A stretch of 64,000 nt of DNA from a virus (Duplodnaviria > Heunggongvirae > Uroviricota > Caudoviricetes): the IMG/VR virus record IMGVR_UViG_3300043399_000676; one strand, 5' to 3'. Below, in pieces: positions 26,404-63,870 of this stretch. Position numbers and translations under genes: made by a program. The notes under the pieces were generated by a model. The model had not been told where the DNA came from and did no database searches. It was given only the letters and a program-made list of their open reading frames with translations. Positions within the stretch are counted from its first letter, which is position 1; every line of letters begins with the position of its first letter.

Positions 26404-26997
26404 TTAGACTCTTTTTGCCAGAATGGCGTCTGCTAGTCCATATTCTACTGCTTCGGCTGCTGACAGGAAATAATCACGATCCATATCTCGTTCAAGTTCT
26501 GCAAAGGACTTACCTTTCGTGTTGTGTTGAACGTAAATCTCAGTTAAAAGTTTTTTCAACTTCATGATTTCCTTGTATGAAATTTCGATGTCACTAGCCA
26601 TACCTCGTGCGCCGCCACTAGGCTGATGAATCATTGTCCTAGAGTTGGGTAGAACGTAGCGTTTGCCTTTTGCACCTGCTTGTGCTAAAAGACTTCCCAT
26701 CGAACATGCTTGTCCGATCACAATGGTTGATACATCGGGCTTGATGAACTGCATAGTGTCATAAATTGCCATGCCCGCAGTAACTACTCCACCTGGCGAG
26801 TTGATATATAAATTGATGTCCTTAGTTGAATCTTCGCTTTCTAGAAAAAGCAGTTGAGCAACAATTAGGTTAGCCATATGGTCATCGATTGGACCTTCTA
26901 ACATAATAAGACGATCCCGCATTAACCTTGAATAAAGGTCATAACTGCGTTCACCACGGGAAGTTTGTTCGACTACGATAGGTACTAGACTTGACAT
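26404..26997 (-). CDS. clpP: ATP-dependent Clp protease proteolytic subunit
   Basis: YINSPGG, ACSMGS, MIHQP and DRDYFLSA motifs. Confidence 0.95.
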
Positions 26998-27050
26998 AAG
27001 ATCTCCTTGAAAACTATATTATACAGGTTGTTTTCAAGGAGATCAACAGA

Positions 27051-28574
27051 TTACTTGCGTTTTTCTCTACCAACCGACTTTGATTTTTCCCGTTTGCCTA
27101 ACATTGGGTCAACTATTCGGGTAGCTATGTCGGCTAAAGGCTCAGATGGTTCAGATATTTCAGGATCACTATTAGGTACGTTTGCTGGTTTGTCAGAACC
27201 TTTGTCAATCTTGAAAGTTAGATTCCCGTTTATACCAGTGCTATAGTGCGTTTTATCCGCAGTCAAGTAAACACCCTTGATGTTATTGCTAGGGTACACT
27301 GCGTCGAACTTTTGCAAAGTCCATTCAGCTTTGCTTTTAGTGGCCTTGGTATATACTTGAACTAGCGCACTATTGTTTAGTATTTCGGCGGCAGCTTTAC
27401 TAAAGTTAGTGTTTTCATTTACTTCACGAACCGCCTTATGGGCGATTGCAGCTAGTAAGTGATGAAACAAAGAGACATTATCGGTGTTATTTTTTAACGT
27501 CCTTTCTTTTGCTAACTTCCTTAACCTAGGAGTAAGCAACCTTAACTTATCTAAGTTCTCTAAGTTTATTGGAGATTGTCCTTTTAAAGAACGGACAATC
27601 TCTGCCTCTTCTTCACTAATTACTTTGAACTTGACTCCTAAAAATAAAGGAGAATTAGCCTGCCCCTGATTTTTTATTTCTTCGATAAGTTCAATTACCT
27701 CTCTATGCTTTTTAAGTAGACGATTTCCTCTCTCTGTAAGCTTGAGTTCTTCGATACTGTCGAGAATATTAGAAACACTAGCAGTAGCTCCTTTTCCTCC
27801 CTTGCTACTTACCTTGATTTGCCTTCCATCAGGCAACTCTAAAACCGAATCACTCAATCCTGCTGTTTTTGAGGAGTCGAATGAGATAGTTGCACCTTCT
27901 ACTGACCCATCAAAAAATAGATCAATCGCTTCTTGAGCGTTTCCAGTAGTTAGCCCGTTTAAAATTGCAATGGGCTGAAGAATTTCACAGAAATAGTCCC
28001 TAAATGCAGTAAAGCTGACCTCTTCTTCTTCTGGTGCATTGAAGGACAAAGGAAGCTCTTCGCCCAATGCTACACGATGAGCAACGTAGTAAAGAGGGCT
28101 ATCAGTTCCTAATTTGCTGACAGCAAGTTGATTCATTACATCAGCAATACTTAAATCAATACGATTAGTCAAAAGATCCTGAGGAGTTAAACCAGATTGT
28201 GATTTAACTGCTGACTTTGACGCTAAACTGTAATCACCGACTTTGTTAGGAAATGCATTGGCTGTTTTTAATGGGTTGATCTTTTGAAGGAATCTACCAA
28301 ACAAAACTTCATTTCCATCCTCGTCTGTAAAACTTGCAATACCAAATCCTCCCATACCAGCAGTCAAGTTGTTTTCCCAAGTTATATCTAAGAATTGACT
28401 TACCGCTTCTTCCATGTCTTCAGGGGAAAATTTTCCTCCCCCTTCAGGATAGAATTCTATATTGTTAAACGTTAATTGTTTCCCCTCTGGGTTCTTGAAG
28501 ACATCACCTGGCTTTCTATTAGCCATTCCTTTGCTTTCAACAAGCAGGTCTAAAATATTCATTAAATCACGCAT
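27051..28574 (-). CDS. large hypothetical late protein, possible PD-(D/E)xK fold
   Basis: TAAATA promoter; FCEIL...GLSDSVL...IKVSSKG. Confidence 0.6.
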   Translation of the reverse strand: MRDLMNILDLLVESKGMANRKPGDVFKNPEGKQLTFNNIEFYPEGGGKFSPEDMEEAVSQFLDITWENNLTAGMGGFGIASFTDEDGNEVLFGRFLQKINPLKTANAFPNKVGDYSLASKSAVKSQSGLTPQDLLTNRIDLSIADVMNQLAVSKLGTDSPLYYVAHRVALGEELPLSFNAPEEEEVSFTAFRDYFCEILQPIAILNGLTTGNAQEAIDLFFDGSVEGATISFDSSKTAGLSDSVLELPDGRQIKVSSKGGKGATASVSNILDSIEELKLTERGNRLLKKHREVIELIEEIKNQGQANSPLFLGVKFKVISEEEAEIVRSLKGQSPINLENLDKLRLLTPRLRKLAKERTLKNNTDNVSLFHHLLAAIAHKAVREVNENTNFSKAAAEILNNSALVQVYTKATKSKAEWTLQKFDAVYPSNNIKGVYLTADKTHYSTGINGNLTFKIDKGSDKPANVPNSDPEISEPSEPLADIATRIVDPMLGKREKSKSVGREKRK

Positions 28575-28594
28575 AGTGAACTATTTATCTAAAG

Positions 28595-29056
28595 TTAAAC
28601 TTTAAAAAAGTTCTGGTGCTCAAACCATTTTTTGGCGCAATAGCTTATTTTTAGAGGGATATTATGCACAAGCATTCGTTCTTTAAACGAGAAGAAAGTA
28701 GGGCCATGATTCATGAAATCTTTTTTCCCTTTCGTTGGTCCTAGTATCTCATATTGATATTGGTGACATAACTCATGTGCGAGGATCATAAGAGTCCATT
28801 GAGGACAAAACCATTTATCAGACAGCGTTATTTGACAATTTTGATTACCAAAGCACATTCCCCAATATCCTCTACATCTTGTCCTTAGTTGTATACTAGG
28901 TGTTGAGAGTTCCGAATTGAATATGGTTTGGTTCAGCAGTTCAAACATATGAAAGATATCTTTGTACTCGGGTCTATACTTTCTTCTGTATTGATCTGTT
29001 TTAGGGGGCAACGGAGAACTCATTATTTCTTTCAAATTCATCGATTGGATCATCAA
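28595..29056 (-). CDS. SprT-like zinc metalloprotease
   Basis: LNQTIFNSEL, LAHELCH and HGPTF motifs. Confidence 0.8.
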   Translation of the reverse strand: MMIQSMNLKEIMSSPLPPKTDQYRRKYRPEYKDIFHMFELLNQTIFNSELSTPSIQLRTRCRGYWGMCFGNQNCQITLSDKWFCPQWTLMILAHELCHQYQYEILGPTKGKKDFMNHGPTFFSFKERMLVHNIPLKISYCAKKWFEHQNFFKV

Positions 29057-29104
29057 ATATTTATATAGAGGGAACGAAAAATAAATAGTTTACAAGGAGA
29101 AAAC

Positions 29105-29338
29105 ATGTTTAAATTTATCAAGAAGTTTTTCGAGAAAAAAGAGCAATCACAGGATGAGTTAGCACCCTATAAGATCGAGCCACCGCCTGTAGCTGCACCT
29201 TCCCCAGTTGAAGCGGAAAGTAAGCCTCCTAGAAAAAGAAGAACCACAGTTGCGAAGCAACCGACTAAACCTGAACCTTCAAAGCCGAAAGCAATGAAGC
29301 CAAGAACACCAAAGAAACCAAAAGCTACCGAAAAATGA
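29105..29338 (+). CDS. Pro/Lys-rich hypothetical protein
   Basis: AAGGAG SD and TAAATA promoter. Confidence 0.6.
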   Translation: MFKFIKKFFEKKEQSQDELAPYKIEPPPVAAPSPVEAESKPPRKRRTTVAKQPTKPEPSKPKAMKPRTPKKPKATEK

Positions 29339-30033
29339 AATTGGGATTCGATGTTATTAGCGACCTGTACTTAACCGACAACTCATTTGATTGGGACGGA
29401 AAAGTAACAAGTCTATTTTGTTTAGTATGTGGAAATATAAGCAATGACCTTAGTATAGTTGATGATGTACTGACTAAGTTAAGTAAAGTTTATAACAAGG
29501 TATTCTTCATTGAAGGTTCTTTGGAGCACAAAGATTTGTTCAATCATATGGGAACTATTACGACAATTGAACAGATATGCAGTAATCTAGAAAACGTGAT
29601 ATATCTTTATGACAACGTAGCTATCCTAAATGGAATTGCGATTGTAGGATGCAATGGTTGGTATGGAAACGTAGTAGTAAATGAGGATGAAGATAGTCTC
29701 CTAAATTTAAGTATGCTAAACTTTCAAGATTTGGTATACCTAACCAACACTATAAAGAAACTTCAACTATATAACGATGTAGAACAGATTATAGTAGTTA
29801 CTAGTAGTATACCGAGTAAAGGAGTTTGTCTTGAAGACAACGGTGATCTTTCTGATTTAGCACCGTATCCTGCATTTAGTTTAACCTTCGATACGGAACA
29901 TAAGGTTTCTACTTGGGTGTTTGGATCATACGATAAAATGATAAACGCCATCGGAGACGATGGCGTTAAGTATGTAAACAATGGGTGTTTTAATGCAAAC
30001 CCATATTGGGCAAAGCGAATAGAGTTAGATTAA
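29335..30033 (+). CDS. degenerate calcineurin-like metallophosphoesterase
   Basis: ISDLY, CGNI, EGSLEH and WVFGS correspond to altered DxH, GD, GNHE and GHxH motifs. Confidence 0.6.
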   Translation: MKLGFDVISDLYLTDNSFDWDGKVTSLFCLVCGNISNDLSIVDDVLTKLSKVYNKVFFIEGSLEHKDLFNHMGTITTIEQICSNLENVIYLYDNVAILNGIAIVGCNGWYGNVVVNEDEDSLLNLSMLNFQDLVYLTNTIKKLQLYNDVEQIIVVTSSIPSKGVCLEDNGDLSDLAPYPAFSLTFDTEHKVSTWVFGSYDKMINAIGDDGVKYVNNGCFNANPYWAKRIELD

Positions 30034-30338
30034 GCGTCTTGTTCGATTCTTACTACTAAGGGGTAACCTTTGCTACGAGCATCAATGGTTACCTCAATTC
30101 CTTTTTGTTCTGCAATTTCATACGGAAGAACTGCTACCACTGCACTACCTTCTTCATGAATCCCAGTCGTAATATTTTCGGCTGTTTCATAAGAATAGTC
30201 GAAGTAATTAACTAAGCTTTCAATAACGTAATCCATTGTAGTTTTGTCATCATTCATGTAGACAACCTTGAACATTGGAGGTTCTGTGATGCTTAGGTTA
30301 GGCTTAATTCTAGTTTTAATGTCCGATTTTGTAGTCAT
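30030..30338 (-). CDS. clpS: Clp protease adaptor
   Basis: PPMFKVVYMNDDKTTMDYV, IHEEGSAVV and YEIAEQK motifs. Confidence 0.9.
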   Translation of the reverse strand: MTTKSDIKTRIKPNLSITEPPMFKVVYMNDDKTTMDYVIESLVNYFDYSYETAENITTGIHEEGSAVVAVLPYEIAEQKGIEVTIDARSKGYPLVVRIEQDA

Positions 30339-30357
30339 TTTTTTCCCTATCTAAGAT

Positions 30358-30379
30358 GAGAGGGGAGAATCCCCTCTCG
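30358..30379 (-). terminator. hairpin downstream of the Hsp20 gene
   Basis: GAGAGGGGA-GAA-TCCCCTCTC inverted repeat. Confidence 0.45.
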
Positions 30380-30398
30380 TAGTTGTTACACTATTATA

Positions 30399-30839
30399 TT
30401 ATTTAGTGTAGGTGATTGCAATTTTCTTGGGTTTTTCTTCTTCCGGAACAACTCTTTCAAAGTTGATCGTCAGAATCCCGTTTGCCATTTCGGCATTAGT
30501 TACTTTGATATTATCGTAGATAGGCCACGATAGTGAAAAGGATCTAGAACTAATACCCCTATACAGATACTGTGGTTTAGGTTCTTCGTCTGAGTGAGAC
30601 TGTGTTCCTTTAACCACAAGTTGATTACGTTCAACTTGAACTTCGATGTCGCCTTCTTTGAATCCAGCAACTGCCATCTGAATAGCGAATTGATCTTGGT
30701 CGATCTTCAATACGTTATACGGAGGATACGTAGGATTCTTTTGAATAGAACGGCTTAGTTCATCAAATAGAGATTCAAACCCTAACGCAAACCGATGAAT
30801 CTCAGGTAGGTTAAGCGAACGCAATGATAGATTTGTCAT
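30399..30839 (-). CDS. small heat-shock protein (Hsp20, IbpA-like)
   Basis: YPPYNV, AVAGF, YLYRGIS, NGILTI and PEEEKPKKIAI motifs. Confidence 0.92.
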   Translation of the reverse strand: MTNLSLRSLNLPEIHRFALGFESLFDELSRSIQKNPTYPPYNVLKIDQDQFAIQMAVAGFKEGDIEVQVERNQLVVKGTQSHSDEEPKPQYLYRGISSRSFSLSWPIYDNIKVTNAEMANGILTINFERVVPEEEKPKKIAITYTK

Positions 30840-30945
30840 GTGTTTTCTCCTTTATAATAAGCAAGTTATGACATAAATGAGGCCTCACCATGAGCACCTC
30901 ATATCTATTTATACTACTTTACGGCAGTATAGTATACTATTTTGG

Positions 30946-31167
30946 TTAAAAATTCTTCTTAGGGACTGTTTGATCCCTAAGATACTTTTTCCATCTACGA
31001 ATAGCTTGGTTCTTTGCCATTTTCTTTTTCGTAGTTGGTTTTATAAACTCCTGACGTTCTTTTACTTCTTGCAGTAGACCTGCGTCTGCAACTGTCTTTT
31101 TAAACTTTCGCAGAGCGCGGTCAACGTTGTCGTCATGTACTGTTACTTTTAGTCCCTTTATTAACAT
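30946..31167 (-). CDS. rpsU: ribosomal protein bS21
   Basis: NVDRALRKFKKTV...LQEVKERQEFIKPT. Confidence 0.85.
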   Translation of the reverse strand: MLIKGLKVTVHDDNVDRALRKFKKTVADAGLLQEVKERQEFIKPTTKKKMAKNQAIRRWKKYLRDQTVPKKNF

Positions 31168-32369
31168 AATGCTGTTGGTGTTATCACCTTCTCCTTATCG
31201 ATATTTAGCACTCTTAGTCCTTGATCGTAGTATTTTTTAACGTTAAACATATGCTGCATTAGAACCTTTTCAAGTTCTTCGTGCAACCCCCTAGCACCTG
31301 TTTTATGCTTTAACGTATTTTCCGCTATCAATTCAATTGCCTCGTCCGTAAATGACAACTGAATTTCATCTATACTAAACAGGTGTTTATATTGCAATAT
31401 ATAGTTATTCTTGACTTCAGTCAAGATGTGAACCATGTCATCCTTTGTAAGTTCATTTATGCTCACCTTTGTCGCAAACCTACCTACGAATTCAGGAATC
31501 ATTCCAAATTTTAACAGGTCATCTGTAGTGACGTATTTGAGATTGCCGGCGACGTTTTCGATTTTAGATGGAGCATTAAACCCTATAGTAACCTCATTCA
31601 TTCTTTCTGCAATGACTTCAGTCAACCCTGCAAAGGCTCCACCTGCAATAAAAAGAATATTGGTCGTGTCAATTTCTATTACTTCATTGGTAGATTGTTT
31701 CTTTGATGTCTTAGTAACAGGTAATCTACACTTAGTTCCTTCTATTAACTTTAAGAGACCCTGCTGAACTCCCTCGCCCGAGATATCTCTACCTGCACTA
31801 TTTCTAGCCTGTTTCTTTGCAATCTTGTCAATCTCATCGATGAAAACGATTCCTCGCTCAGTTCGTTCTTTGCTTCCTCCCGATGCATTAAAAAGCATAC
31901 CAATGATACTCTCGACATCATCCCCTACGTAACCTGCTTCAGTTAATCCAGTGGCATCGGCGACTACAAAAGGAACATTTAGGTATTTGGCTATAGTCTT
32001 AGCAAGATATGTTTTTCCACTACCCGTGGGACCCATTAAAAGAATATTGCCTTTTTCTATCTCTAGATCCAATGAAGGTTTGTTTATACGTTTGTAGTGA
32101 TTTGCAACGGCTACGCTAAGAACAACTTTAGCATCATCTTGTCCAATCACATATTCATCTAGAAACTCTTTGATTTTTCTAGGATCAAAGAGTTCCGAAG
32201 ACTCTTCTTGTTTCGCAGGAGATATCGTGTTACCGTGTACTAAATGACCGCACAGATCAATGCATTCATTGCATATTGACGCGGAGTGTCCTACGACCAG
32301 GCGTTTGACTACGGATTTGTTTTTCCCGCAAAATGAACACACTGTGGATTTTTCGTTTTCATCTGACAT
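31161..32369 (-). CDS. clpX: ATP-dependent Clp protease ATPase subunit
   Basis: CSFCGK zinc finger, GPTGSGKT, LTEAGYVGDDVE, IDEIDK, IGF loop and GARGL motifs. Confidence 0.95.
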   Translation of the reverse strand: MSDENEKSTVCSFCGKNKSVVKRLVVGHSASICNECIDLCGHLVHGNTISPAKQEESSELFDPRKIKEFLDEYVIGQDDAKVVLSVAVANHYKRINKPSLDLEIEKGNILLMGPTGSGKTYLAKTIAKYLNVPFVVADATGLTEAGYVGDDVESIIGMLFNASGGSKERTERGIVFIDEIDKIAKKQARNSAGRDISGEGVQQGLLKLIEGTKCRLPVTKTSKKQSTNEVIEIDTTNILFIAGGAFAGLTEVIAERMNEVTIGFNAPSKIENVAGNLKYVTTDDLLKFGMIPEFVGRFATKVSINELTKDDMVHILTEVKNNYILQYKHLFSIDEIQLSFTDEAIELIAENTLKHKTGARGLHEELEKVLMQHMFNVKKYYDQGLRVLNIDKEKVITPTALC

Positions 32370-52667: not shown

Positions 52668-54116
52668 TTATTTTTCAATGATTACTACTGAGTGCCCCCA
52701 CAGCATCTTAATATACTCCAGTACTGTTGCTTTGCTCTTATGTAACTTAGCATTGTTTACTGGAGTATATTTCAGTCTTAGCTCTCTGCTACCTTTAAGG
52801 TCTGCATCAAACACCTGAATGTTTGGTTGATAAGCTGATAGGCTATACTGGCTACTCAATGTCTGTCTGATTCTGTCATAGTACCTGTTATCTTGAATGC
52901 CAGTTACTTCGACGTACTCATCATCTTCATTGTTAGTAATTTCAAACAGTTTCCATTTACGCATTATGGTTGGACTGAGGAACTGTTGAATAAAACTTTC
53001 GTCACGATAGTTTTCTACTGCATACAAACATTCATCAAGCCAGTTCTTTCCAACTAGGTGAGGGAAGTATTCTTCGTCTTCAGCAGTAGGAAACTCACAA
53101 ATTCTGCGAATGTCACTAAACATATCGAACCCAAGTGCATATGGATTATATCCATTGTAATACTTGTGATCATATGGCAACTGAGTCAGTACACCTGAGT
53201 GGCTGTGTATAAATTCTAGATAACTACCATCACTAATAAGACCTTTTTCCCAAAGTCTATTCATGATGTAATAGTGAGTGAAGCTAGCCCAACCCTCGTT
53301 CATCACTTTAGTCTGACGTTGTGGGTAGAAGTATTGACTAATCTTACGAACAATACGAACGATTTCACGTTGCCAAGACTCAAGAATAGGACTATGTTTC
53401 TCTATGAAGTACATAATGTTTTCTTGCGGTTCTTCAGGAAACTGCTTTGATACCCTAGACTCTTGTGTTTTCTTTTTAGGGAGTGTACTCCAAAGTTCGT
53501 TAGCCTGTTGCTGCACTAACTCTTCTCTTTGTTTTTGACGTTCCTCTTCTTTTTCTTTGCTTAACTTTGAGGGTCTTTTGTACTTGTCGATGCCATAATC
53601 CATGATAGCATGGCAAGCATCCAATGTATTTTCTACAGCTTCGTACCCATATTTCTCTTCGCACTTTGCAATGTAGTTCTTGGCAAAGTTCATGTAGTCA
53701 ACGATGCCTTCTGCGTCAGTCCATTGCTTGAACAGGTAATTGTTCTTAAAGAAATGATTATGCCCATATGCAGCGTGAGCAATTACTAATGCCTGCATCG
53801 TCATCGAATTTTCTTCCATCAGATAACTGATACACGGAGAAGAGTTAATTACGATTTCATACGCTAGTCCTTGATATCCTTTACGATAACTGTATTGCTG
53901 TTGTATGAAGTGTTTACCAAAGCTCCAATGATTGTACATAAGTGGAAGACCATGTGAAGCATACGCTTCTAACATTTGATCCGATCCTATGATTTCAATC
54001 TGATTGGGATACGTGTTTAGTTTCAATTCATCGAACGCGATTTCTGCAATAGCTTCATCTGCTATTTTTAGACGCTCAAACGTCCAATCATTACCTTCCC
54101 ATAGTAGCTTTGACAT
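52668..54116 (-). CDS. SpoVR family protein (YcgB-like)
   Basis: YNHWSFGK, LAYEIVINS, AHAAYGHNHFFKNN and QTKVMNEGWASF motifs. Confidence 0.92.
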   Translation of the reverse strand: MSKLLWEGNDWTFERLKIADEAIAEIAFDELKLNTYPNQIEIIGSDQMLEAYASHGLPLMYNHWSFGKHFIQQQYSYRKGYQGLAYEIVINSSPCISYLMEENSMTMQALVIAHAAYGHNHFFKNNYLFKQWTDAEGIVDYMNFAKNYIAKCEEKYGYEAVENTLDACHAIMDYGIDKYKRPSKLSKEKEEERQKQREELVQQQANELWSTLPKKKTQESRVSKQFPEEPQENIMYFIEKHSPILESWQREIVRIVRKISQYFYPQRQTKVMNEGWASFTHYYIMNRLWEKGLISDGSYLEFIHSHSGVLTQLPYDHKYYNGYNPYALGFDMFSDIRRICEFPTAEDEEYFPHLVGKNWLDECLYAVENYRDESFIQQFLSPTIMRKWKLFEITNNEDDEYVEVTGIQDNRYYDRIRQTLSSQYSLSAYQPNIQVFDADLKGSRELRLKYTPVNNAKLHKSKATVLEYIKMLWGHSVVIIEK

Positions 54117-54127
54117 AACAATTCCTT

Positions 54128-54838
54128 TTAGGGTATTATTGGTTTACCGCTGATTTTACTAACCGCGATTAGGTGCCCACTACCAGTAACATATACACCA
54201 GTTTTTCTAGTAGCGAGATATTGATCTCTAGTATCAACTGTAGCAGCTTTGGCTATTCTTCCTGCCTTATAAGGATAAGATCCCCAATTCTTAGGCCACA
54301 TTAACTGCTCACCTGACTTTAAAAAGTTAGCTAGGTTTTCTTCTGTAGCCGACTGTTTGCTCATTGCAACGAAGTCATATTTCCCCTCACTAGCATTAGA
54401 CAAAAATTCTGTAAGGGCATTGGAAGTAAATCCTATGTTCTGGAACGAATTGTCCTTAGCAGTCTTTAATAAACGATTGAATATTGAATCATTTGGGTCG
54501 ACTCCAACTCGTTGAACTCTATTATTTTCATCGACGTTAGAAAACAAAACATATAACCACTTGTAATCATTTGGGTCTATGTCATTAGCTACCTGATCAT
54601 CCCAGCTTCCTTTATAATTGTCTATTTGACCTTTAGTTAATGGAGCGTCTGTACCGTTGCCTTCATACCAAGCACCGTATTTTTTGGCTATCATTTGAAC
54701 ACGTTGAAGAGTTTCAGGAGATAATTGTAATGGTTTCCCGTGCGCCTGTCCTACTACTACCGCGTTATCATTTAGAAATATTGCACCTATGCTAGATGAT
54801 GCGTTTTCAAAAAGAGGTAATATCTCACTTATCTTCAT
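54128..54838 (-). CDS. hypothetical protein with virion-type N-terminus
   Basis: MKISEILPLFE; ends GVYVTGSGHL. Confidence 0.65.
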   Translation of the reverse strand: MKISEILPLFENASSSIGAIFLNDNAVVVGQAHGKPLQLSPETLQRVQMIAKKYGAWYEGNGTDAPLTKGQIDNYKGSWDDQVANDIDPNDYKWLYVLFSNVDENNRVQRVGVDPNDSIFNRLLKTAKDNSFQNIGFTSNALTEFLSNASEGKYDFVAMSKQSATEENLANFLKSGEQLMWPKNWGSYPYKAGRIAKAATVDTRDQYLATRKTGVYVTGSGHLIAVSKISGKPIIP

Positions 54839-54840
54839 GC

Positions 54841-56097
54841 TTACCTCGCTTCTTGTTTAGCAAACAACTCTCTGAACACTAGCCAAATGTCTTTCACTTC
54901 AGTGACTGTTCGCATGGCCAAATGTGAGTATTTTTCTCGTAATGGATCATATGTATCCCATAGTTCAGTGTTTAGGCTGTTTGCGTAATACAAGTTCTCT
55001 ATTTCGACGTAGGCAAAATACTGAACTAAGGGCAATAACTTTTCAAGTGCAATCACTGTGTCTTCGCCGTCATTGGAAAAGTTGTCCCCATCAGATGCCT
55101 GACTGACAAAAATATTCCAGTCATCGACGTTATATCGTTCTTTGATAATTTCCAAAGCTAAGTTTAGTCCAGAACTAACAACAGTTCCGCCGCTTTCTCT
55201 ACTATGGAAGAAATCTTCTTCATCTACTTCTTTAGCAGACTCATGGTGTCGAATAAAGATTACATCTACCTTTTCATACTTTCTTCTTAGGAACATGTGC
55301 AAGAAAAAGAAGAAACGCTTGGCTAAATCTTTTTCTCTCTGTCCCATACTACCAGATACGTCCATGATACAAATCATGACTGCTTTGGTAATTGGCTGCG
55401 GGGTAGGAGTGAAGTTTCTGTATCTTACATCAAATGGATCTAGCCAGGGAATAGCACGTTGCTTTCTCTTTAGCTCTTCAAGTCGTAGCAAGAGTTCCTT
55501 TGCTTTATACTCGTTGCATGTCTTAAGCTGTTCTTCAATTTCAAGAATTTCTTCATTCTTAGGACGCTTGAGTCCTATTCTTCTTCCTAAGCTATTCTTA
55601 AGACTTCGTACAACATCTAACTGACTTGGATTGCCTACATTAGTAAAGCCCGCTCTCTTAGGCTTTACCTTTGTAATGTCTTTCATTTGTTTTTTAACTA
55701 GATCAGGTAACTCTAAGTCTTCGAAGATGAAGTCAAGGTACTCATCTGGATTAAGTACAAACTCAAAGTCATCTTCTCCTTCACCTAGTCCACCCTTTGA
55801 TCCTCCGCCACCTTCTTCATCCTCAGGCTTTTTTTGCCTGTCGCCGACAACGTGTTCTTTGTTGCCGGGTAGCACATACTTCTTATCACCTGTCTTTGAG
55901 TTAATACCGAACGATGGTTCGCCAATACCTTTGACCTTAACTTTTACCTTTCCGTTTTCGATATCAGCAATGTTTCCATTGTCTATTGATTCTTTTACCG
56001 CTTCCTTTATCTGTGCCTTACTTCGCTTGATAAACTTTTGACGATTCTTAATCGTCTTATCTTTTGGATTCAGTCTTCGGTCAATGATATTAGCCAT
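54841..56097 (-). CDS. YeaH/YhbH family vWA protein (DUF444)
   Basis: IIDRRLN, MDVSGSM, ESGGTVVSS and SDGDN motifs. Confidence 0.92.
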   Translation of the reverse strand: MANIIDRRLNPKDKTIKNRQKFIKRSKAQIKEAVKESIDNGNIADIENGKVKVKVKGIGEPSFGINSKTGDKKYVLPGNKEHVVGDRQKKPEDEEGGGGSKGGLGEGEDDFEFVLNPDEYLDFIFEDLELPDLVKKQMKDITKVKPKRAGFTNVGNPSQLDVVRSLKNSLGRRIGLKRPKNEEILEIEEQLKTCNEYKAKELLLRLEELKRKQRAIPWLDPFDVRYRNFTPTPQPITKAVMICIMDVSGSMGQREKDLAKRFFFFLHMFLRRKYEKVDVIFIRHHESAKEVDEEDFFHSRESGGTVVSSGLNLALEIIKERYNVDDWNIFVSQASDGDNFSNDGEDTVIALEKLLPLVQYFAYVEIENLYYANSLNTELWDTYDPLREKYSHLAMRTVTEVKDIWLVFRELFAKQEAR

Positions 56098-56108
56098 CTA
56101 GCTTTCCT

Positions 56109-58055
56109 TTAAGAACTCTTACGAACTCTCTGATACCAGTCACACAAACGTCTTACTTGTCTTTCGGTGTATCCTAGACCAATCATTCTGGTCACAAAGT
56201 CGTTGTGCTTCTTCTCAAGTTCTTTATCCTTCTTGCTATCAAAACTGATGACTGGTAGAAGGTCTTCTACTTGACTAAACATTCTCTTTTCAATAACGTC
56301 ACGAAGAACTGAGTAGCTAGTCCAAGCAGGATTCTTTCCACCGTTCTCGGGTTTAGCTCTTGCTCTTAGGCAGAAGTTGACTACTTCGTTTCTAAAATCT
56401 TTTGGATTAGAAATCCCTGCAGGCTTCTCGATCTTCTCAAGCTCTGAGTTCAGCAAAGCCCTATCCATCATTAGTCCAGTATCTGGATCTTTGAATTCAA
56501 TGTTCTGAATCCATGCATCAGCAAAATCTACATAGCGATCAAACAAGTTTTGCCCATAGTCACTATATGATTCTAGATATGCACGTTGAATAGAATTACC
56601 TAGAAACTCTGCATATCTAGTAGACAACTCACTCTTAATAAAATCAAGATACTTTTGTTCACGATCTGATCCAAACTGTTCACGCTTAATTGCGTTCTCA
56701 AGTACAAACATTAGATGTACGGGGTCTGCTGCGATTTCTTCTGGAGTGAAGTTAAAGGTCTGACTTAGAATCTTGTAAGCAAATCGAGTTGAAATGCCAT
56801 CCATACCCTCATCTACACCTGCAACATCGTGATATTCCTGAATAGACTTTGCTTTAGGATCACTGTCACGAATGTTTTCTCCATTGTAGACTCGCATCTT
56901 ACTAAAGAGGGTGCTATTTTCATGTTCACGAAGTCTAGTCAATACACTAAACTGTGCTAGCATTTCGACTGTCTGAGGAGCACAAGGTGCTGCACCTAGG
57001 CCCGAACTCTTGATCATTTTTTCGTAAATCTTAACTTCTTCGTCAACACGCAAGCAATACGGTACCTTGACAACGCATATCCTGTCAAGAAACGCTTCGT
57101 TGTTTTTGTTGTTTCTAAAGGTTTGCCATTCACTTTCGTTAGAGTGGGCAAGAACAATTCCTTGAAACGGTATAGCAGAGATTGCTTCTGTACCGACATA
57201 GTTTCCCTCCTGTGTGGCTGTAAGTAGAGGATGTAGCACTTTGATAGGAGCCTTAAACATCTCTACGAATTCAAGTAGGCCTTGATTAGCTCTGTTCAAT
57301 CCACCGCTATAGCTATAGGCATCAGTATCATTTTGGCTGTATTGTTCTAGTTTACGAATATCAACCTTACCAACTAGGGTACTGATGTCTTGGTTGTTTT
57401 CATCACCAGGCTCAGTCTTCATGACTGCAATTTGCTCTAGTTTACTAGGCATTAACTTAACTACTCGGAACTTAGTGATGTCACCATTGAATTCTTTTAG
57501 CCTCTTCATAGCCCACGGACTCATGATGCTATTGAGATAGCGTCCTTCTATTCCATATTGTTCAAACAAATGTTCTCTGAACTGTGGTACTGAAGAGAAC
57601 AGCCCTAGTGGACTTTCGAATACAGGACTAATCTCACCTGTTTCAGTTGCTAGTGCATAGATAGGGTTGAGCTCCATCAACTCCTTAAGGCGTTCAGCAA
57701 GTGATGACTTACCGCCACCAACTGGTCCTAGTAGGTATAGAATTTGTTTACGTTCTTCTAGTCCTTGTGCTGCATGTCTGAAGTACCCTACAATACGTTC
57801 GATTGCATCTTCCATACCATAGAACTCTTTGAATGCTGGGTACATTCTTACTGTACGATTAGTGAAGATTCTGCTTAGACGAGAATCTTTGCTAGTGTCC
57901 ACTAGCTCTGGCTCACCAATCGCTGCAATCATTCGTTCTGCGGCTGTGGCGTAAGCCATCTTGTCACTTTTGCATAGGTCAAGATACTCATCTATGGTCA
58001 TAGACTTGTATGCGGTCTTTTCAAAATTACTTTTGAATAAATTGGATATTGACAT
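56109..58055 (-). CDS. prkA: PrkA/YeaG family serine kinase/AAA ATPase
   Basis: LLGPVGGGKSSL, EPGDENNQDISTLVG and HPLLTATQEGNY motifs. Confidence 0.93.
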   Translation of the reverse strand: MSISNLFKSNFEKTAYKSMTIDEYLDLCKSDKMAYATAAERMIAAIGEPELVDTSKDSRLSRIFTNRTVRMYPAFKEFYGMEDAIERIVGYFRHAAQGLEERKQILYLLGPVGGGKSSLAERLKELMELNPIYALATETGEISPVFESPLGLFSSVPQFREHLFEQYGIEGRYLNSIMSPWAMKRLKEFNGDITKFRVVKLMPSKLEQIAVMKTEPGDENNQDISTLVGKVDIRKLEQYSQNDTDAYSYSGGLNRANQGLLEFVEMFKAPIKVLHPLLTATQEGNYVGTEAISAIPFQGIVLAHSNESEWQTFRNNKNNEAFLDRICVVKVPYCLRVDEEVKIYEKMIKSSGLGAAPCAPQTVEMLAQFSVLTRLREHENSTLFSKMRVYNGENIRDSDPKAKSIQEYHDVAGVDEGMDGISTRFAYKILSQTFNFTPEEIAADPVHLMFVLENAIKREQFGSDREQKYLDFIKSELSTRYAEFLGNSIQRAYLESYSDYGQNLFDRYVDFADAWIQNIEFKDPDTGLMMDRALLNSELEKIEKPAGISNPKDFRNEVVNFCLRARAKPENGGKNPAWTSYSVLRDVIEKRMFSQVEDLLPVISFDSKKDKELEKKHNDFVTRMIGLGYTERQVRRLCDWYQRVRKSS

Positions 58056-59463: not shown

Positions 59464-59606
59464 TGGTGTCAAGGTTTTCGTACTTGACACTGGGTCGAGG
59501 GATGTCCCAGACGGCAGATGCATGAACCCACCTAATATAGTATGCCACCGTAACGTCAGGGTGGTACGCATCGTCGCTCTTTGGCGGCTCCTTCCTCGGT
59601 TTTGTT
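59464..59606 (-). ncRNA. putative CCA-ended structured ncRNA
   Basis: GC-rich hairpins; ends GTGTCAAG-TACGAAAAC-CTTGACACCA. Confidence 0.5.
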
Positions 59607-59697
59607 ACCATATTGAAACACACTAGGCGCACACACAGCGACTACAACTGCACCACCAGCTTGAGTCCTCATAGTGTTAAGTGTGCTTCAATATGGT
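59607..59697 (-). repeat. ACCATATT hairpin element 1
   Basis: ACCATATTGAAGCACACT...AGTGTGTTTCAATATGGT. Confidence 0.85.
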
Positions 59698-59816
59698 AGT
59701 TGGTGCTGATCTCCAACTTGATTGCACTGCTACGTCCTGTTTCCTGACGCTACCCTAAACGATGGTCTGGGCCTGCAATCCGCATAACCAGCTACTGCGT
59801 ATCAGCCTACGCATTT
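59694..59816 (-). ncRNA. putative CCA-ended kissing-loop ncRNA
   Basis: TGCGTA-GGCTGA-TACGCA ... GTTGG-AGATCAGCA-CCAAC-TACCA. Confidence 0.6.
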
Positions 59817-59897
59817 ACCATATTGAAACATATTCTGTCGCCGTTTTCGCATACGCTGGTAACGACCAAGACCTCAAAGAATATGTTTCAATATGGT
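59817..59897 (-). repeat. ACCATATT hairpin element 2
   Basis: 20-bp perfect inverted repeat ACCATATTGAAACATATTCT. Confidence 0.85.
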
Positions 59898-60026
59898 GCC
59901 AGTCTTTCCTGGCTGTCATCTAAGTTTCTTTTTGATACTATTGCCTGCCCACGGATTTAGCTAGCTTACCGTGCTGCTCATACTGGACGCAACTTAGAGA
60001 AGAGACCGCTGCTCTTACTGGCTTTC
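59894..60026 (-). ncRNA. putative CCA-ended structured ncRNA
   Basis: CTAAGTT...AACTTAG stem; ends GACAGCCAGGAAAGACTGGCACCA. Confidence 0.55.
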
Positions 60027-60121
60027 ACCATATTGAAACACACTGGTACTTCCCTTCAAAGGGGCAGGAAGTTTATGGCTGTTGCCCCACTCCGATACCA
60101 ACCAATGTGTTTTAATATAGT
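60027..60121 (-). repeat. ACCATATT hairpin element 3
   Basis: ACTATATTAAAACACATTGGT...ACCAGTGTGTTTCAATATGGT. Confidence 0.8.
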
Positions 60122-60200
60122 GTCACTCTCCTGACCACTTTTAACGGAGGGGGTAGAGCCTCGAGTGACTTGTCAAAGACAGGCTTTATTCCTGGTTGCA

Positions 60201-60277
60201 ACCATATTGAAGTAGACTGTTAAGTGGCCGTTTGTTCAACGGAATTCTTTTTCGCACTCAATCTACTTTAATATGGT
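60201..60277 (-). repeat. ACCATATT hairpin element 4
   Basis: ACCATATTAAAGTAGATTG...CAGTCTACTTCAATATGGT. Confidence 0.8.
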
Positions 60278-60436
60278 AACGCCTTGTTCTTCTAACTTCT
60301 TCCTGAACTCATTCCTTGCATGAAGATACCATGCCCAGTTACCCATGAATCCATCTATGCTTGTAGGCTTATCCAAATTAGCGTAATACTCTTTAAACTG
60401 CTTTTCAAACTCGGCGAGCGTTATTGTTTTGTTCAT
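60263..60436 (-). CDS. small hypothetical protein (57 aa; not in ORF track)
   Basis: AGAGGT SD; MNKTITLAEFEKQFKEYY...; stop codon lies inside hairpin 4. Confidence 0.6.
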   Translation of the reverse strand: MNKTITLAEFEKQFKEYYANLDKPTSIDGFMGNWAWYLHARNEFRKKLEEQGVTILK

Positions 60437-60457
60437 AGATACCTCTTGTTATTAGTC

Positions 60458-60628
60458 TGGTGTCCACGAGTCTTGTTACTCTCCGTATGCATCCGGATTT
60501 CTCGCAGTACGTGGTCTAGTCATAGCCTCTGCTTATGTTCAACGACCCGCCGGTGTCATTGCACCTTATCAAGTATCGTGTATAGTTTCCGCTTCATCGA
60601 CTACCGCTGACATACAGATCAGCTTCAC
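60458..60628 (-). ncRNA. putative CCA-ended structured ncRNA
   Basis: No credible ORF, multiple hairpins, ends ...CGTGGACACCA. Confidence 0.45.
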
Positions 60629-60707
60629 ACCATATCAAAGCATACTCGGGTCACGAAGTTTCCGATTTCAAACCCCCGATTCTTACGGACATATGCTTTG
60701 ATATGAT
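60629..60707 (-). repeat. ACCATATT hairpin element 5 (at the predicted TSS)
   Basis: ATCATATCAAAGCATAT...GTATGCTTTGATATGGT. Confidence 0.75.
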
Positions 60708-60714
60708 GTCAATA

Positions 60715-60743
60715 ATTATACATATCTCTTATATGTATGTCAA
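60715..60743 (-). promoter_or_regulatory. consensus sigma70 promoter for the ncRNA operon
   Basis: TTGACA-17 nt-TATAAT on the minus strand. Confidence 0.85.
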
Positions 60744-60744
60744 G

Positions 60745-60821
60745 TGGTACTTCCTAGAAGAATCGAACTTCTGACCTCTTGCGTGTCATGCAAGCGTTCT
60801 TGACCACTGAACTAAGGAAGT
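60745..60821 (-). tRNA. tRNA-Val(GAC)
   Basis: Loop AT-GAC-AC, ACCA end. Confidence 0.85.
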
Positions 60822-60827
60822 AGAGTT

Positions 60828-60903
60828 TGGTAGGACCTGCCAGGTTCGAACTGACGACATTCTGCGTGTAGGGCAGACGCTCTACCAACTGAGCTAAGGT
60901 CCT
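60828..60903 (-). tRNA. tRNA-Val(TAC)
   Basis: Loop CC-TAC-AC (C33 variant), ACCA end. Confidence 0.85.
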
Positions 60904-60910
60904 TTATTTT

Positions 60911-61000
60911 TGGCGGAGAAGGTGAGATTCGAACTCACGGTAGAGTTTCCCCTACGCTAGTTTTCAAGACTAGAGCCATAAACCACTCGGCCACTTCTCC
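60911..61000 (-). tRNA. tRNA-Ser(TGA)
   Basis: Loop CT-TGA-AA, long variable arm. Confidence 0.9.
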
Positions 61001-61007
61001 TTATGTT

Positions 61008-61081
61008 TGGTGCCCCAGGAAGGTTACGCTCCTCCTACTCATCTTTACCAAAGATGTATTTTACTATTAAACCACAGGGGC
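61008..61081 (-). tRNA. tRNA-Thr(GGT) with non-canonical T-loop
   Basis: Loop TT-GGT-AA; T-loop AGCGTAA. Confidence 0.75.
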
Positions 61082-61100
61082 AACTCCAATAAATATTGTC

Positions 61101-61637
61101 ATGAATTACTGCAATAAACTTAACCTTGATCTTTCTCCCGTCTCTAGTACTTTCGATCTATATTCTATAAAGAAAGAACACACCGTATTAGATAAGTCAG
61201 AAATCAACCCTGAAATTCAATCATTTTTATCGGAAAGAAACATTTCCATAAGCTGGGCAGAAATTTTCTATAGAAAACCATTTGATATTGTCAATATTCA
61301 CACCGATGATCTAGGGGGAGACATTGTTAAAATCAACTGGATATACGGCGGAGAAAACAGCACAATGTTTTGGTTTGCACCAAAAGATCCTTCTATTGTA
61401 AAGATTCCATTTAAAACGGCTATAAACAGCAACTACTTGTACTACAAACGAGATGAAGTCAATCTTGTACACAAAGAACAACTACGAGGAGCTTACCTAG
61501 TTCAAGTAGGAGTCCCGCATGCAGTTATAAATTCAAAAGCAGAACGATATTGTATCAGCCTAGTTTTACAAAACCAGCATAATCAATTTTTATCTATGCG
61601 CGATGCTATCTCTATTTTTTCTGATCTGATTGTTTAA
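61101..61637 (+). CDS. hypothetical protein, cupin/2OG-Fe(II)-like
   Basis: IHTD...KINW...VGVPHAVIN...RYCIS; TAAATA promoter. Confidence 0.55.
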   Translation: MNYCNKLNLDLSPVSSTFDLYSIKKEHTVLDKSEINPEIQSFLSERNISISWAEIFYRKPFDIVNIHTDDLGGDIVKINWIYGGENSTMFWFAPKDPSIVKIPFKTAINSNYLYYKRDEVNLVHKEQLRGAYLVQVGVPHAVINSKAERYCISLVLQNQHNQFLSMRDAISIFSDLIV

Positions 61638-61713
61638 TGGTGCCCCCTTCTGGTTACGCTCCAGACTCCCATGCTCTTCAGGCATATGCTTTCACTAGAT
61701 TAGCTTAAGGGGC
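61638..61713 (-). tRNA. tRNA-Phe(GAA) with non-canonical T-loop
   Basis: Loop CT-GAA-GA; T-loop AGCGTAA. Confidence 0.75.
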
Positions 61714-62316
61714 ATTAAGTTTTTGCCAAGTTTTTTTATTTTCATGAACAGCTAGTTCACACGTTTCCTCATCATAGATTTGTTCAGGTGTTATATACCC
61801 AACACTTTCCTTAGTCATTAACCATTCTGTTAATGAGGGTGTTCCATAAGGAAAGGTCTCATCGAGTTTAGGAACACAAGGTGACTGGCAAAACTTTAAG
61901 AAGTCAGAAGTTTTATGTTTTTTGGCAATAATCACAAAGTCATCAATCATCGTGGTTTTCATTCCTCGATTGTAGAAGTATAATCCTCTTCTTTTAGGAA
62001 ATATCATATCTACTTCATCAAACAAGGAATACAAATGATCGAAATCTACTTTCCACCTAATATCAAAATCAGTATAGATACCGCCAAATTTGTCTAACAC
62101 CGAATACCTTGCTAATTGCAACTTATGAAACAAGGTGCTTTTCAAGTACAATTCTTTGATATGCGGAAAGTTCTCTAAAATATCTGAGTCTTTCCATAGA
62201 ATAAATCCATAAGAAGGATTCATTGCAATAGTGTTTCTATAGTTACCGTAAAAACTATCTGGGGTAGAATTCTCTCCTACCCAAATGTAATGAACTAAGC
62301 TGTTAAATCGTTTCAT
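61705..62316 (-). CDS. glycosyltransferase, DXD type (GT32-like)
   Basis: VHYIWVG, RYSVLDKFGGIYTDFD; start moved to MKRFN because the upstream part of the track ORF is a tRNA. Confidence 0.8.
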   Translation of the reverse strand: MKRFNSLVHYIWVGENSTPDSFYGNYRNTIAMNPSYGFILWKDSDILENFPHIKELYLKSTLFHKLQLARYSVLDKFGGIYTDFDIRWKVDFDHLYSLFDEVDMIFPKRRGLYFYNRGMKTTMIDDFVIIAKKHKTSDFLKFCQSPCVPKLDETFPYGTPSLTEWLMTKESVGYITPEQIYDEETCELAVHENKKTWQKLNAP

Positions 62317-62329
62317 GTTGTATATATGA

Positions 62330-62406
62330 TGGTAGTGACGGCGAGGTTCGAACTCGCTTCTTTCAGCCTTATGAGGACTGCGTATTTCCACTAATACTAC
62401 GTCACT
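62330..62406 (-). tRNA. tRNA-Met/Ile2(CAT)
   Basis: Loop CT-CAT-AA, ACCA end. Confidence 0.8.
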
Positions 62407-62418
62407 TTAACGTACTTG

Positions 62419-62498
62419 ACCATATTGAAGTACACTATTTTCATATCCTTTCGGTCCTGCTGATCAGTGTTTGCCAGGATAATGCACTTTAATATGGT
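62419..62498 (-). repeat. ACCATATT hairpin element 6
   Basis: ACCATATTAAAGTGCATTAT...ATAGTGTACTTCAATATGGT; starts at the ACCA of tRNA-Lys. Confidence 0.85.
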
Positions 62499-62569
62499 TG
62501 GGGCAGGGGGACTTGAACCCCCAACTTACCGGTTAAAAGCCGGTTACTCTACCATTGAGTTATACCCCA
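62495..62569 (-). tRNA. tRNA-Lys(TTT)
   Basis: Loop CT-TTT-AA. Confidence 0.9.
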
Positions 62570-62672
62570 TCATAGATCGTATTGTTGATTTACCGTGCCA
62601 ACTCTAGACCTACGATGGGATCTAGAGCGACACTACATCTTACCTCGTTTCATGTCAATCTCCTTAAAAATT

Positions 62673-62746
62673 TGGTAGCCCCGGGAGGTAACGCTCCTCC
62701 GACTCCGCGTTATCAGCACGGTGTTATACTTTTTAACTAAAGGGCC
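62673..62746 (-). tRNA. tRNA-Ile(GAT) with non-canonical T-loop
   Basis: Loop CT-GAT-AA; T-loop AGCGTTA. Confidence 0.75.
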
Positions 62747-62756
62747 AATTATAAAA

Positions 62757-62815
62757 CAGGATGCGCTTTTCTTTTTCCAATAAGAAGTAGAATTAAGTTT
62801 GCTGAATGCATCCTA
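62757..62815 (-). ncRNA. stem-CAGCAA motif copy D
   Basis: TAGGATGC-ATTCAGCAAACTTAATT...GCATCCTG. Confidence 0.7.
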
Positions 62816-62912
62816 AAAAGGGCACCGGTTACGCTTTCCGGCGCTGCTTGTACACTCAATAAATCATGAGTAGTTCACAGCCGTTGCTGTTGCGTCTAGG
62901 CAACTTTCGTTT

Positions 62913-62987
62913 TGGAGCGGGTAGTCGGGTTCGAACCGACGACCTTCTGCTTGGCAAGCAGATGCACTACCACTGTGCTATACCCGC
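62913..62987 (-). tRNA. tRNA-Gly(GCC)
   Basis: Loop TT-GCC-AA, TCCA end. Confidence 0.92.
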
Positions 62988-62994
62988 ATATTCT

Positions 62995-63078
62995 TGGTGC
63001 CCCAGGAGGGATTCGAACCCTCACGCCTCTCGGCACTGGTTTCTAAGACCAGCGTGTCTACCATTCCACCACCGGGGC
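62995..63078 (-). tRNA. tRNA-Leu(TAG)
   Basis: Loop CT-TAG-AA, variable arm. Confidence 0.92.
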
Positions 63079-63087
63079 AAAAATTCT

Positions 63088-63163
63088 TGGGGTGACTAGT
63101 CGGATTTGAACCGACATCTATCGGAATCACAATCCGAGGCTCTACCGTTGAGCTATAGCCACC
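63088..63163 (-). tRNA. tRNA-His(GTG)
   Basis: Loop TT-GTG-AT, G-1, CCCA end. Confidence 0.9.
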
Positions 63164-63170
63164 ATCGATT

Positions 63171-63281
63171 ACCATATTGAAGCACACTTGTAGGACTTGA
63201 ACCTACCGACTTTGCTCTAAGGGCAAAGCTATGCACCACCCATATCAGCGCGGCCTGCGCCTTAGTGTGCTTTAATATGGC
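63171..63281 (-). repeat. ACCATATT hairpin element 7 enclosing a tRNA-like body
   Basis: GCCATATTAAAGCACACT...GTAGGTTCAAGTCCTAC-AAGTGTGCTTCAATATGGT. Confidence 0.8.
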
Positions 63282-63353
63282 TACGGTGGAGGGACTTGAA
63301 CCCCCAACATCTGGTTTTGGAGACCAGGGTTCTGCCAATTGAACTACACCGTA
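63278..63353 (-). tRNA. tRNA-Trp(CCA)
   Basis: Loop CT-CCA-AA, GCCA end. Confidence 0.9.
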
Positions 63354-63589: not shown

Positions 63590-63599
63590 ATAAACAAAA

Positions 63600-63662
63600 C
63601 AGGATGCCTTTTTACGGTTTAGATTAGAAGTCTAATGTATAAAGTTTGCTGAAAGCATCCTA
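63600..63662 (-). ncRNA. stem-CAGCAA motif copy E with an Arg(TCT) anticodon-arm mimic
   Basis: TAGGATGC-TTTCAGCAAAC...TTAGA-CTTCTAA-TCTAA...GCATCCTG. Confidence 0.7.
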
Positions 63663-63666
63663 AAAC

Positions 63667-63749
63667 TGGTGTGTGTTACGGGATTCGAACCCGCACTTCA
63701 AGGTTGTTAGCCCTGCGTCGTGATGCCCTAACATTTTGACCAAACACAC
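63667..63749 (-). tRNA. atypical tRNA-like gene with AAC anticodon and expanded D-loop
   Basis: GTGTGTT acceptor stem, CAGGG-CTAACAA-CCTTG arm, canonical T-arm, ACCA end. Confidence 0.6.
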
Positions 63750-63755
63750 ATAAAC

Positions 63756-63870
63756 TGGCGCCGCTGCTAGGAATCGAACCTAGATATCTTCCTTGACATG
63801 GAATTGTAATTGCTGAACGTAATCTTGACAGATTCGCTTTTTAAGCGTCCTACCATTAGACGACAGCGGC
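63756..63870 (-). tRNA. tRNA-Asp(GTC)-like gene with a ~40-nt CAGCAA-containing insertion
   Basis: Intact acceptor, D and T arms and GCCA end; TTCC-ATGTCAA-GGAA arm; insertion follows the D-arm. Confidence 0.6.

Follow-up and report, generated by a model that had tools for sequence, protein, structure and literature searches.

A repeated hairpin interlocked with tRNA 3' ends in a phage tRNA cluster, a likely RNase III processing site

The hairpin array in the phage tRNA cluster

The window analyzed here is a whole 64,000-nucleotide (nt) stretch (G000:C1:2712-66711, minus-strand reading) of IMG/VR record IMGVR_UViG_3300043399_000676, a linear 137-kb virus record with an estimated completeness of ~35% that encodes a tail-sheath gene and a family B polymerase. 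ARAGORN called 22 tRNAs in the window, and the whole tRNA cluster, together with the hairpins that are the subject of this study, lies on the minus strand. A sequence-only reading of this DNA had described seven such hairpins, and all seven were located (E1 to E7; Table 1): the arm motif gave 16 matches with one mismatch against a shuffle mean of 6.3, with none of 100 shuffles as high, and every hairpin folded at a z-score between -3.5 and -7.0, with zero or one of 200 shuffles equally stable. Across the whole genome, the paired arms were confined to the tRNA cluster and always ran in the tRNA sense. The hairpins share a conserved stem of 18-20 base pairs (bp) that is likely a site for host RNase III, punctuating a precursor of tRNAs and small RNAs, interlocked with tRNA ends and framing small RNAs that can be swapped; on sequence evidence, we place the probability of this reading at about 0.65.

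E1 and E2 begin on the discriminators of tRNA-Trp and tRNA-Lys, exactly as had been reported, and these are the only two of the seven copies that follow a tRNA. The companion statement, that further copies begin at the 3' ends of three non-coding RNAs, applies loosely to E5 and E6, but the start of E3 falls within the final codons of a 57-aa open reading frame (ORF), E7 starts ~7 nt past a promoter-like site, and E4 has no CCA. Both E4 and E7, variants with U-G wobbles, lack this triplet. At E6, the CCA is taken up in the terminal helix, 7 bp long, of the RNA upstream and does not form a free tRNA-like tail. Rfam at the gathering score returned only tRNAs in the window and no family, ribozymes included, for elements or spacers; at E-values up to 5, only weak miRNA-type matches (E 0.17-4.3) appeared, over E5 and E6.

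Table 1. Hairpins, predicted cuts and adjoining features of the window, in order along the minus strand.
Feature	Position	Strand	Remarks
tRNA-Trp(CCA)	63278..63353	-	discriminator and CCA are the first 4 bases of E1
E1	63281-63171	-	conserved stem around a tRNA-elbow-like cargo (D-like loop, T-loop)
E1 predicted cuts	63274^63273 and 63177^63176	-	would release a cargo of 97 nt
tRNA-His	63088..63162	-	begins 8 nt past E1
tRNA-Lys(UUU)	62495..62569	-	NCCA is the start of E2
E2	62498-62419	-	stem and cargo without relative among fetched elements; predicted cuts 62491^62490 and 62425^62424
tRNA-Met	62330..62406	-	begins 12 nt past E2
Promoter-like site	60715..60743	-	12/12 sigma-70 consensus, at head of small-RNA array
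E7	60707-60629	-	variant stem at predicted transcript start; AUCA replaces NCCA
Spacer RNA A	60458..60634	-	predicted closure UGGUGU/ACACCA, from fold prediction
57-aa ORF	60263..60436	-	AGAGGU ribosome-binding-like site; last five codons and stop overlap E3 5' arm
E3	60277-60201	-	stem and cargo without relative among fetched elements; predicted cut 60270^60269
Spacer RNA B	60114..60206	-	flanked by the predicted E3 and E4 cuts; no relative found
E4	60121-60027	-	ACUA variant; cargo shared with L019, both neighbors different there
Spacer RNA C	59890..60032	-	shared with L587, there between different cargos; terminal hairpin motif very common in viruses
E5	59897-59817	-	perfect 20-bp stem
Spacer RNA D	59690..59822	-	7-bp terminal helix, T-arm-like hairpin, 5-bp loop-loop complement
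E6	59697-59607	-	stem and cargo common to L069
Spacer RNA E	59464..59612	-	after E6; ends in hairpin and ACCA, from fold prediction

A conserved family linked to tRNA ends

An exact two-arm pattern search recovered at least 126 viral loci (~340 stretches estimated), and tRNAs were present in 114 of the 126 exact-pattern viral loci listed. A relaxed search over these 114 tRNA-bearing loci, with the 12 loci lacking tRNAs left out, gave 211 unique elements in 101 loci. Stem positions 2-11 are fixed by the search pattern, and the copies are related, such that the counts are not independent events; the stem ran beyond the pattern in 131 of 136 unique matches selected by the pattern only. Cellular genomes gave mostly chance matches: among 120 examined, 13 had an extended stem and four combined the stem with tRNAs, of which three lay on contigs of metagenome-assembled genomes that are likely phage sequence. 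Cultured phages yielded tRNA matches and three short matches only, and relatives reached via a neighboring amidinotransferase-like gene comprised 23 loci, none with a tRNA cluster. We found no published description of the element in the literature searched, although subscription journals and supplementary motif tables lay outside that search and could list it. The element is real and conserved and, apparently, undescribed in print.

The positional link with CCA ends holds in homologous loci: when a tRNA end was counted as upstream between -15 and +30 nt from the element start, 98 of the 102 copies with a tRNA just upstream began exactly on NCCA. At the opposite end, 35 of 211 copies finish in the first GG (G1G2) of the next tRNA. 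Loss of the CCA occurred where no tRNA precedes, that is in E4, E7 and 24 of 108 family copies. The upstream tRNAs were unevenly represented in loci L001-L126, which are not independent: Leu(UAG) (13/28), Glu(UUC) (19/58), Gln(UUG) (12/37) and Lys(UUU) (9/41) were favored, and Asp (0/48), Ala (0/40), Ser(GCU) (0/36) and Pro (0/33) were never used.

The compensatory sets CAC/GTG, CAT/ATG, TAG/CTA and TGC/GTA described for the window are present, and covariation extends through the family. Over 121 exact-pattern elements, pairing exceeded that of 1000 partner shuffles at positions 12-16 and 18-20; there was no excess at position 17, where the G partner is near-fixed, or at positions 21-22. The stem thus ends ~11-12 bp above the predicted cut register. 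At positions 12-18, G-U outnumbered A-C by 172 to 4 in the tRNA sense family-wide, an excess on the tRNA strand that shows selection on RNA. The minus strand also folded better than the plus strand in all seven window copies. The proposal that the wobble pairs work on the minus strand only fails at position 9, where E1-E4 have an A-C mismatch that the plus strand would read as G-U. One divergent copy, in L598 (G023) after tRNA-Gln, holds the E5 cargo in a stem with several double-sided changes; CCA is retained there, as are A-U at positions 4 and 11 and U-A at position 18.

In ensemble folds of the precursor, NCCA pairs with the 3' arm at a probability of 0.89-1.0 and the stems of the array each form at near 1.0, in agreement with the earlier suggestion that the element would hide the CCA. 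The acceptor stem abuts the element stem without a gap in these folds. A regulatory switch, in which this pairing would hide or free the CCA according to conditions, had been offered as one explanation. The CCA is indeed physically sequestered in the precursor, and release could be tuned, given that host RNase III activity can vary and that position 9 varies; however, no competing or alternative fold was found in the precursor ensemble, and the 20-bp stem is far stabler than the 6-bp alternatives (-5.5 kcal/mol), leaving a switch improbable. With the CCA paired at p ~1.0 before the cut and no rival fold, we read the masking as an ordering of processing steps.

Swappable cargos and the spacer RNAs between them

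The frame is conserved and its contents are diverse. A total of 218 interiors (211 from the family and seven from the window) fell into 144 clusters; the seven window interiors are mutually unrelated, and those of E2, E3 and E7 are singletons. Nine of 38 multi-member cargo clusters occurred behind at least two upstream tRNA types, and the E5 cargo family is also found behind tRNA-Lys, -Gly, -Asn and -Gln in other phages. Pieces of the array recur elsewhere, including the cargos of E4 (94% in L019) and E5 (93% in L066) and spacers C (93% in L587) and D (86% in L061). For four of five shared modules examined, homology starts and stops within the arms and the neighbors differ, which points to crossover in the arms; the fifth piece, in L069, starts inside spacer D.

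Such mobility might instead reflect a non-autonomous transposon resembling a MITE (miniature inverted-repeat transposable element) that targets CCA ends, as had also been suggested, cleavage by RNase III being incidental, as in the Correia elements of Neisseria. The hairpins do end in inverted repeats, are small and occur in several copies, one cargo can stand behind different tRNAs, junctions of a tRNA with CCATATGG exist (40 of 114 matches), and the 57-aa ORF has a homologue, in L600, without E3. However, the interiors are mutually unrelated within this genome and, taken with those of the family, form 144 clusters, direct repeats of 2-6 nt flanking 209 copies were at shuffle level, with no target duplication, and every copy is in the tRNA sense and within a tRNA cluster. 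The candidate empty sites were not tied to the family: an arm lay near only 1 of the 40 CCATATGG junction loci, and CCATATGG stood at only 2 of 864 tRNA ends in element-bearing loci, although this comparison is weak without a near-identical pair of phages. Furthermore, spacers travel too, with outward-facing arms, the G-U excess denotes selection on RNA, and among 167 ORFs no transposase family was seen save a TnsA-like N-terminal domain. We consider transposition of this kind very improbable.

A T-loop was detected in 11 of the 144 cargo clusters. The cargo of E1 belongs to this tRNA-elbow-like class, found on 36 viral contigs (L553-L588) with the T-loop just before the 3' arm; the T-arm covaries in seven E1-type sequences, and the consensus did not recover a D-arm. 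These cargos have no conserved anticodon, and ARAGORN at a lowered threshold called the E1 interior as a UUA (ochre) tRNA without a normal acceptor stem. The combination of a long terminal stem with a tRNA-elbow-like domain, which carries D-loop- and T-loop-like motifs, recalls the Y RNAs YrlA and Yrn1 as presented in PMC4201824, where the arm order of Deinococcus radiodurans Yrn1 differs from that of YrlA. Stem and cargo might accordingly resemble a Y RNA, in which a stem that binds Ro60 carries a tRNA-like domain. Unlike Y RNAs, the phage element has AUUGAAG in place of the GNCGAAN0-1G motif, E1 was not matched by Rfam YrlA even at E up to 5, neither a TROVE protein nor a linked Ro60 gene was found in the genome or in five complete records, and few cargo clusters have the T-loop. 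A Y RNA identity is, in our view, extremely improbable.

The cargo interiors as a whole fold only weakly better than shuffled sequences (median z -0.55; 46 of 144 below -1). The longest antisense matches of the cargos in their own genome, 10-13 nt, were at shuffle level in seven of seven cases, and CsrA-type GGA motifs were not enriched (142 vs. 157 expected). Some cargos may be inert.

One of the spacers between the hairpins, spacer D, belongs to a separate phage RNA family; its homologues in Alcaligenes phage CASP1 (L392) and in L522 stand without the element. In the window, the arms of E5 and E6 make up its terminal helix, and the CCA at E6 is therefore helical. The 5-bp loop-loop complement of this family was 100% paired in four sequences, with almost no variation, and the element-free CASP1 copy ends in AUGGU/ACCAU, letters identical to the lower stem of the element. 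A closing helix longer than the arms, considered as a rule for all spacers, was unsupported over 52 adjacent pairs and was true of spacer D only. Spacer C ends in a hairpin motif, GACAGC-N-GGAAAGAC-N-GC (59898-59917, minus strand), that is estimated to occur in 3000 viral stretches, often near tRNAs, and has no Rfam family; ACCA followed it in only 3 of 120 cases. Rfam searches of 20 loci, 18 with this motif plus L391 and L392, returned tRNAs and one neighboring Proteo-phage-1 match only.

A predicted RNase III site in the stem

The Escherichia coli RNase III consensus, as quoted in PMC4357697, was scored on both strands of the stem in 19 registers. With the cut placed between positions 8 and 9 (8^9), the score was 21.8 of 32; the 18 other registers reached at most 14.1, and none of 300 permuted consensuses attained 21.8. 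Window copies E1-E6 scored 20-26. With this cut, pairing that continues to position 20 provides the minimal helix of 11 bp above the cut that is given in PMC1540722, together with a distal box of U-A/U-G and a proximal box. We placed these boxes on the stem by inference from the nucleotide numbers in that paper; the distal U-A and U-G would be positions 18 and 17 (183/211 and 161/211 copies), and the proximal A-U pairs positions 11 and 10 (210/211 and 197/211). An A-U pair at position 4, the symmetric pair contacted by Q157, is present in 207 of 211 copies and fits the in vivo D/D' rule in PMC6212723. The lower half-site is CCAU against AUGG, making C75 and A76 of the tRNA part of the site. 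The same paper describes coaxial stacking as a compensation for helix length, and we infer that the acceptor stem can stack on the element helix and lengthen it. RNase III processing, one of the explanations offered in the sequence-only reading for a stem at the CCA, thus gains support from the register test, the stem length and the box identities.

An eighth stem, outside the window and upstream of the tRNA cluster (G000:C1:1354-1452), keeps only the upper half-site (positions 9-18), with a different lower half and no CCA. In L594, a stem of this type stands at the head of the cluster.

No RNase III family match was found in this genome, with 167 ORFs covered, nor in 20 element-bearing records and five more (four complete), most of these 25 being fragments. 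The host enzyme is thus the candidate.

Several observations weigh against an RNase III site. More than half of the copies (109 of 211) have no called tRNA upstream. The in vivo preference for WSSW around the cuts, as stated in PMC6212723, is seen at one of four positions, and both central pairs are U-A. In PMC1540722, G-C at what maps to position 9 is a catalytic antideterminant in vitro, with 14-fold slower cleavage and intact binding; this pair occurs in 144 of 211 copies, including E5 and E6, whereas E1-E4 have A-C. These two features are preferences and not absolute rules, and the preferences of the host RNase III may differ from those of the E. coli consensus used here. With positions 2-11 set by the search pattern, the copies amount to one family and not to 211 independent tests. 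The sequence is also tighter than RNase III is known to need, such that a sequence-specific protein or homogenizing recombination may contribute.

An alternative reading is a stem that is bound but uncut, through RNase III binding only, or that is cut by another factor, such as a phage or host protein that reads its sequence, thereby clamping or protecting the CCA and the cargo. The position-9 G-C pair, with its bind-but-slow-cleave behavior, was commoner where no tRNA precedes (83/108 vs. 54/92; Fisher p 0.009, copies non-independent), and the conservation of sequence is very tight. However, tRNA function demands loss of the trailer, and some cut is therefore needed. There was also no common phage partner: DUF2828 occurred in 1 of 20 records, and again in 1 of 20 (0 of 4 complete), and TROVE/Ro60 in 1 of 20 (0 of 5 complete). 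On balance, binding without cutting, or cutting by a different factor, is unlikely but deserves some weight. DUF2828 was also considered as a Ro60-like partner in its own right and rejected, with no PDB relative, no Atlas structure and poor co-occurrence.

Proposed processing and exchange

If the stem is an RNase III site as predicted, the enzyme would cut 4 nt past the CCA (CCAUAUU^) and 6 nt before the element end (^UAUGGN). The upstream tRNA would be left as tRNA-NCCA-UAUU, whose 4-nt trailer 3' exonucleases would trim, and the RNA that follows would start with UAUGG, a short leader for RNase P, reduced to UAU where the next tRNA begins at GG; the roles of these enzymes in tRNA maturation are established, as noted in PMC10879173. 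The double cut would free a cargo of 63-97 nt with its ends paired over 10-12 bp, leaving a 2-nt 3' overhang. The 6-bp duplex remaining after cutting is weak (-5.5 kcal/mol), and the hidden CCA would be a passing state. The CCA would lie inside the stem because C75 and A76 form the proximal box of the lower half-site. The identical arms would likely serve as crossover points, swapping cargos and spacer RNAs between tRNAs and phages.

At E3, the predicted cut precedes the stop codon of the 57-aa ORF, which is conserved, and the mRNA would thereby lose its stop. The L600 homologue of this ORF (63% identical) has neither the element nor a remnant of E3. It sits just upstream of a two-piece tmRNA.

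A broader and more tentative possibility, which we regard as rather doubtful, is that the array acts as a small-RNA library comparable to pre-miRNAs, with a standard RNase III frame interlocked with tRNA ends that would deliver more than 100 kinds of stable effector RNAs of 60-120 nt, some of them tRNA-elbow decoys; recombination in the arms would reshuffle the cassettes and position 9 would tune release.

Were the proposed processing correct, it would provide a precise and cheaply testable rule for the cutting of large-phage tRNA precursors by a host enzyme whose site includes the CCA of the tRNA itself, and would define the ends of more than 100 unannotated structured phage small RNAs, tRNA mimics included. 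The old question of what non-tRNA stable RNAs do in phage tRNA clusters would become directly testable, and the frame would be a ready cassette to co-express small RNAs and tRNAs in bacteria.

Comparison with known systems

RNase III is involved in processing of the T4 tRNA cluster. That cluster resembles the present array in having small stable non-tRNA RNAs of unknown role, RNAs C and D (rnaC and rnaD in NC_000866), transcribed together with phage tRNAs. In contrast to the array, the T4 stretches inspected contain no repeated CCA-anchored frame, and blastn of the T4 stretch against the array gave no match at E 1e-4.

As in bacterial RNase III processing stems, the host enzyme would punctuate a polycistronic precursor. 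The boxed helix of ~11 bp above the cut and the predicted 2-nt 3' overhangs are shared with T7 R1.1 and its minimal form uR1.1 (PMC1540722) and with the leader-trailer stems of rRNA (PMC8708148). Unlike known RNase III stems, the predicted phage site overlaps the mature ends of tRNAs (CCA; G1G2) and encloses exchangeable small RNAs; unlike the sites preferred in vivo, its central pairs fall outside WSSW.

Theta ribozymes of gut phages are likewise conserved RNA elements at phage tRNA 3' ends, with a proposed role in trailer removal (PMC10879173). They are self-cleaving HDV-like folds, and CCA is encoded in only 4.5% of their tRNAs in the same source. The phage element differs in having no Rfam ribozyme match, in requiring an encoded CCA and in carrying variable cargo. 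The Correia repeat enclosed elements of Neisseria, as described in PMC2649163, offer another likeness, an inverted repeat forming an RNA hairpin that is bound or cut by RNase III, which for the phage hairpins is a prediction. The core of Correia elements is conserved and the elements can move, whereas the phage cores are unrelated, without target duplication, in a single orientation and in tRNA clusters only.

Other genes of the window

Host assignment from bS21 was uninformative. Four tRNA-like genes missed by ARAGORN at default settings were scored by Rfam (63759-63870, with a long insertion, 63670-63749, 62676-62746 and 61641-61713, all on the minus strand). Amid the tRNAs lie two short non-coding units that are related to each other (62753-62833 and 63596-63680, minus strand; repeat families D15 and D16), with weak, unrelated Rfam matches. 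The phage also encodes a set of genes (52668-58055, 26407-32369 and 30949-31167; L129) comprising prkA-yeaH(DUF444)-spoVR, ClpP, ClpS, a ClpX-like protein and a ClpA/B-like ATPase, and the same set includes Hsp20, DnaJ, ribosomal protein S21, PTH2, superoxide dismutase and a ferritin-like gene.

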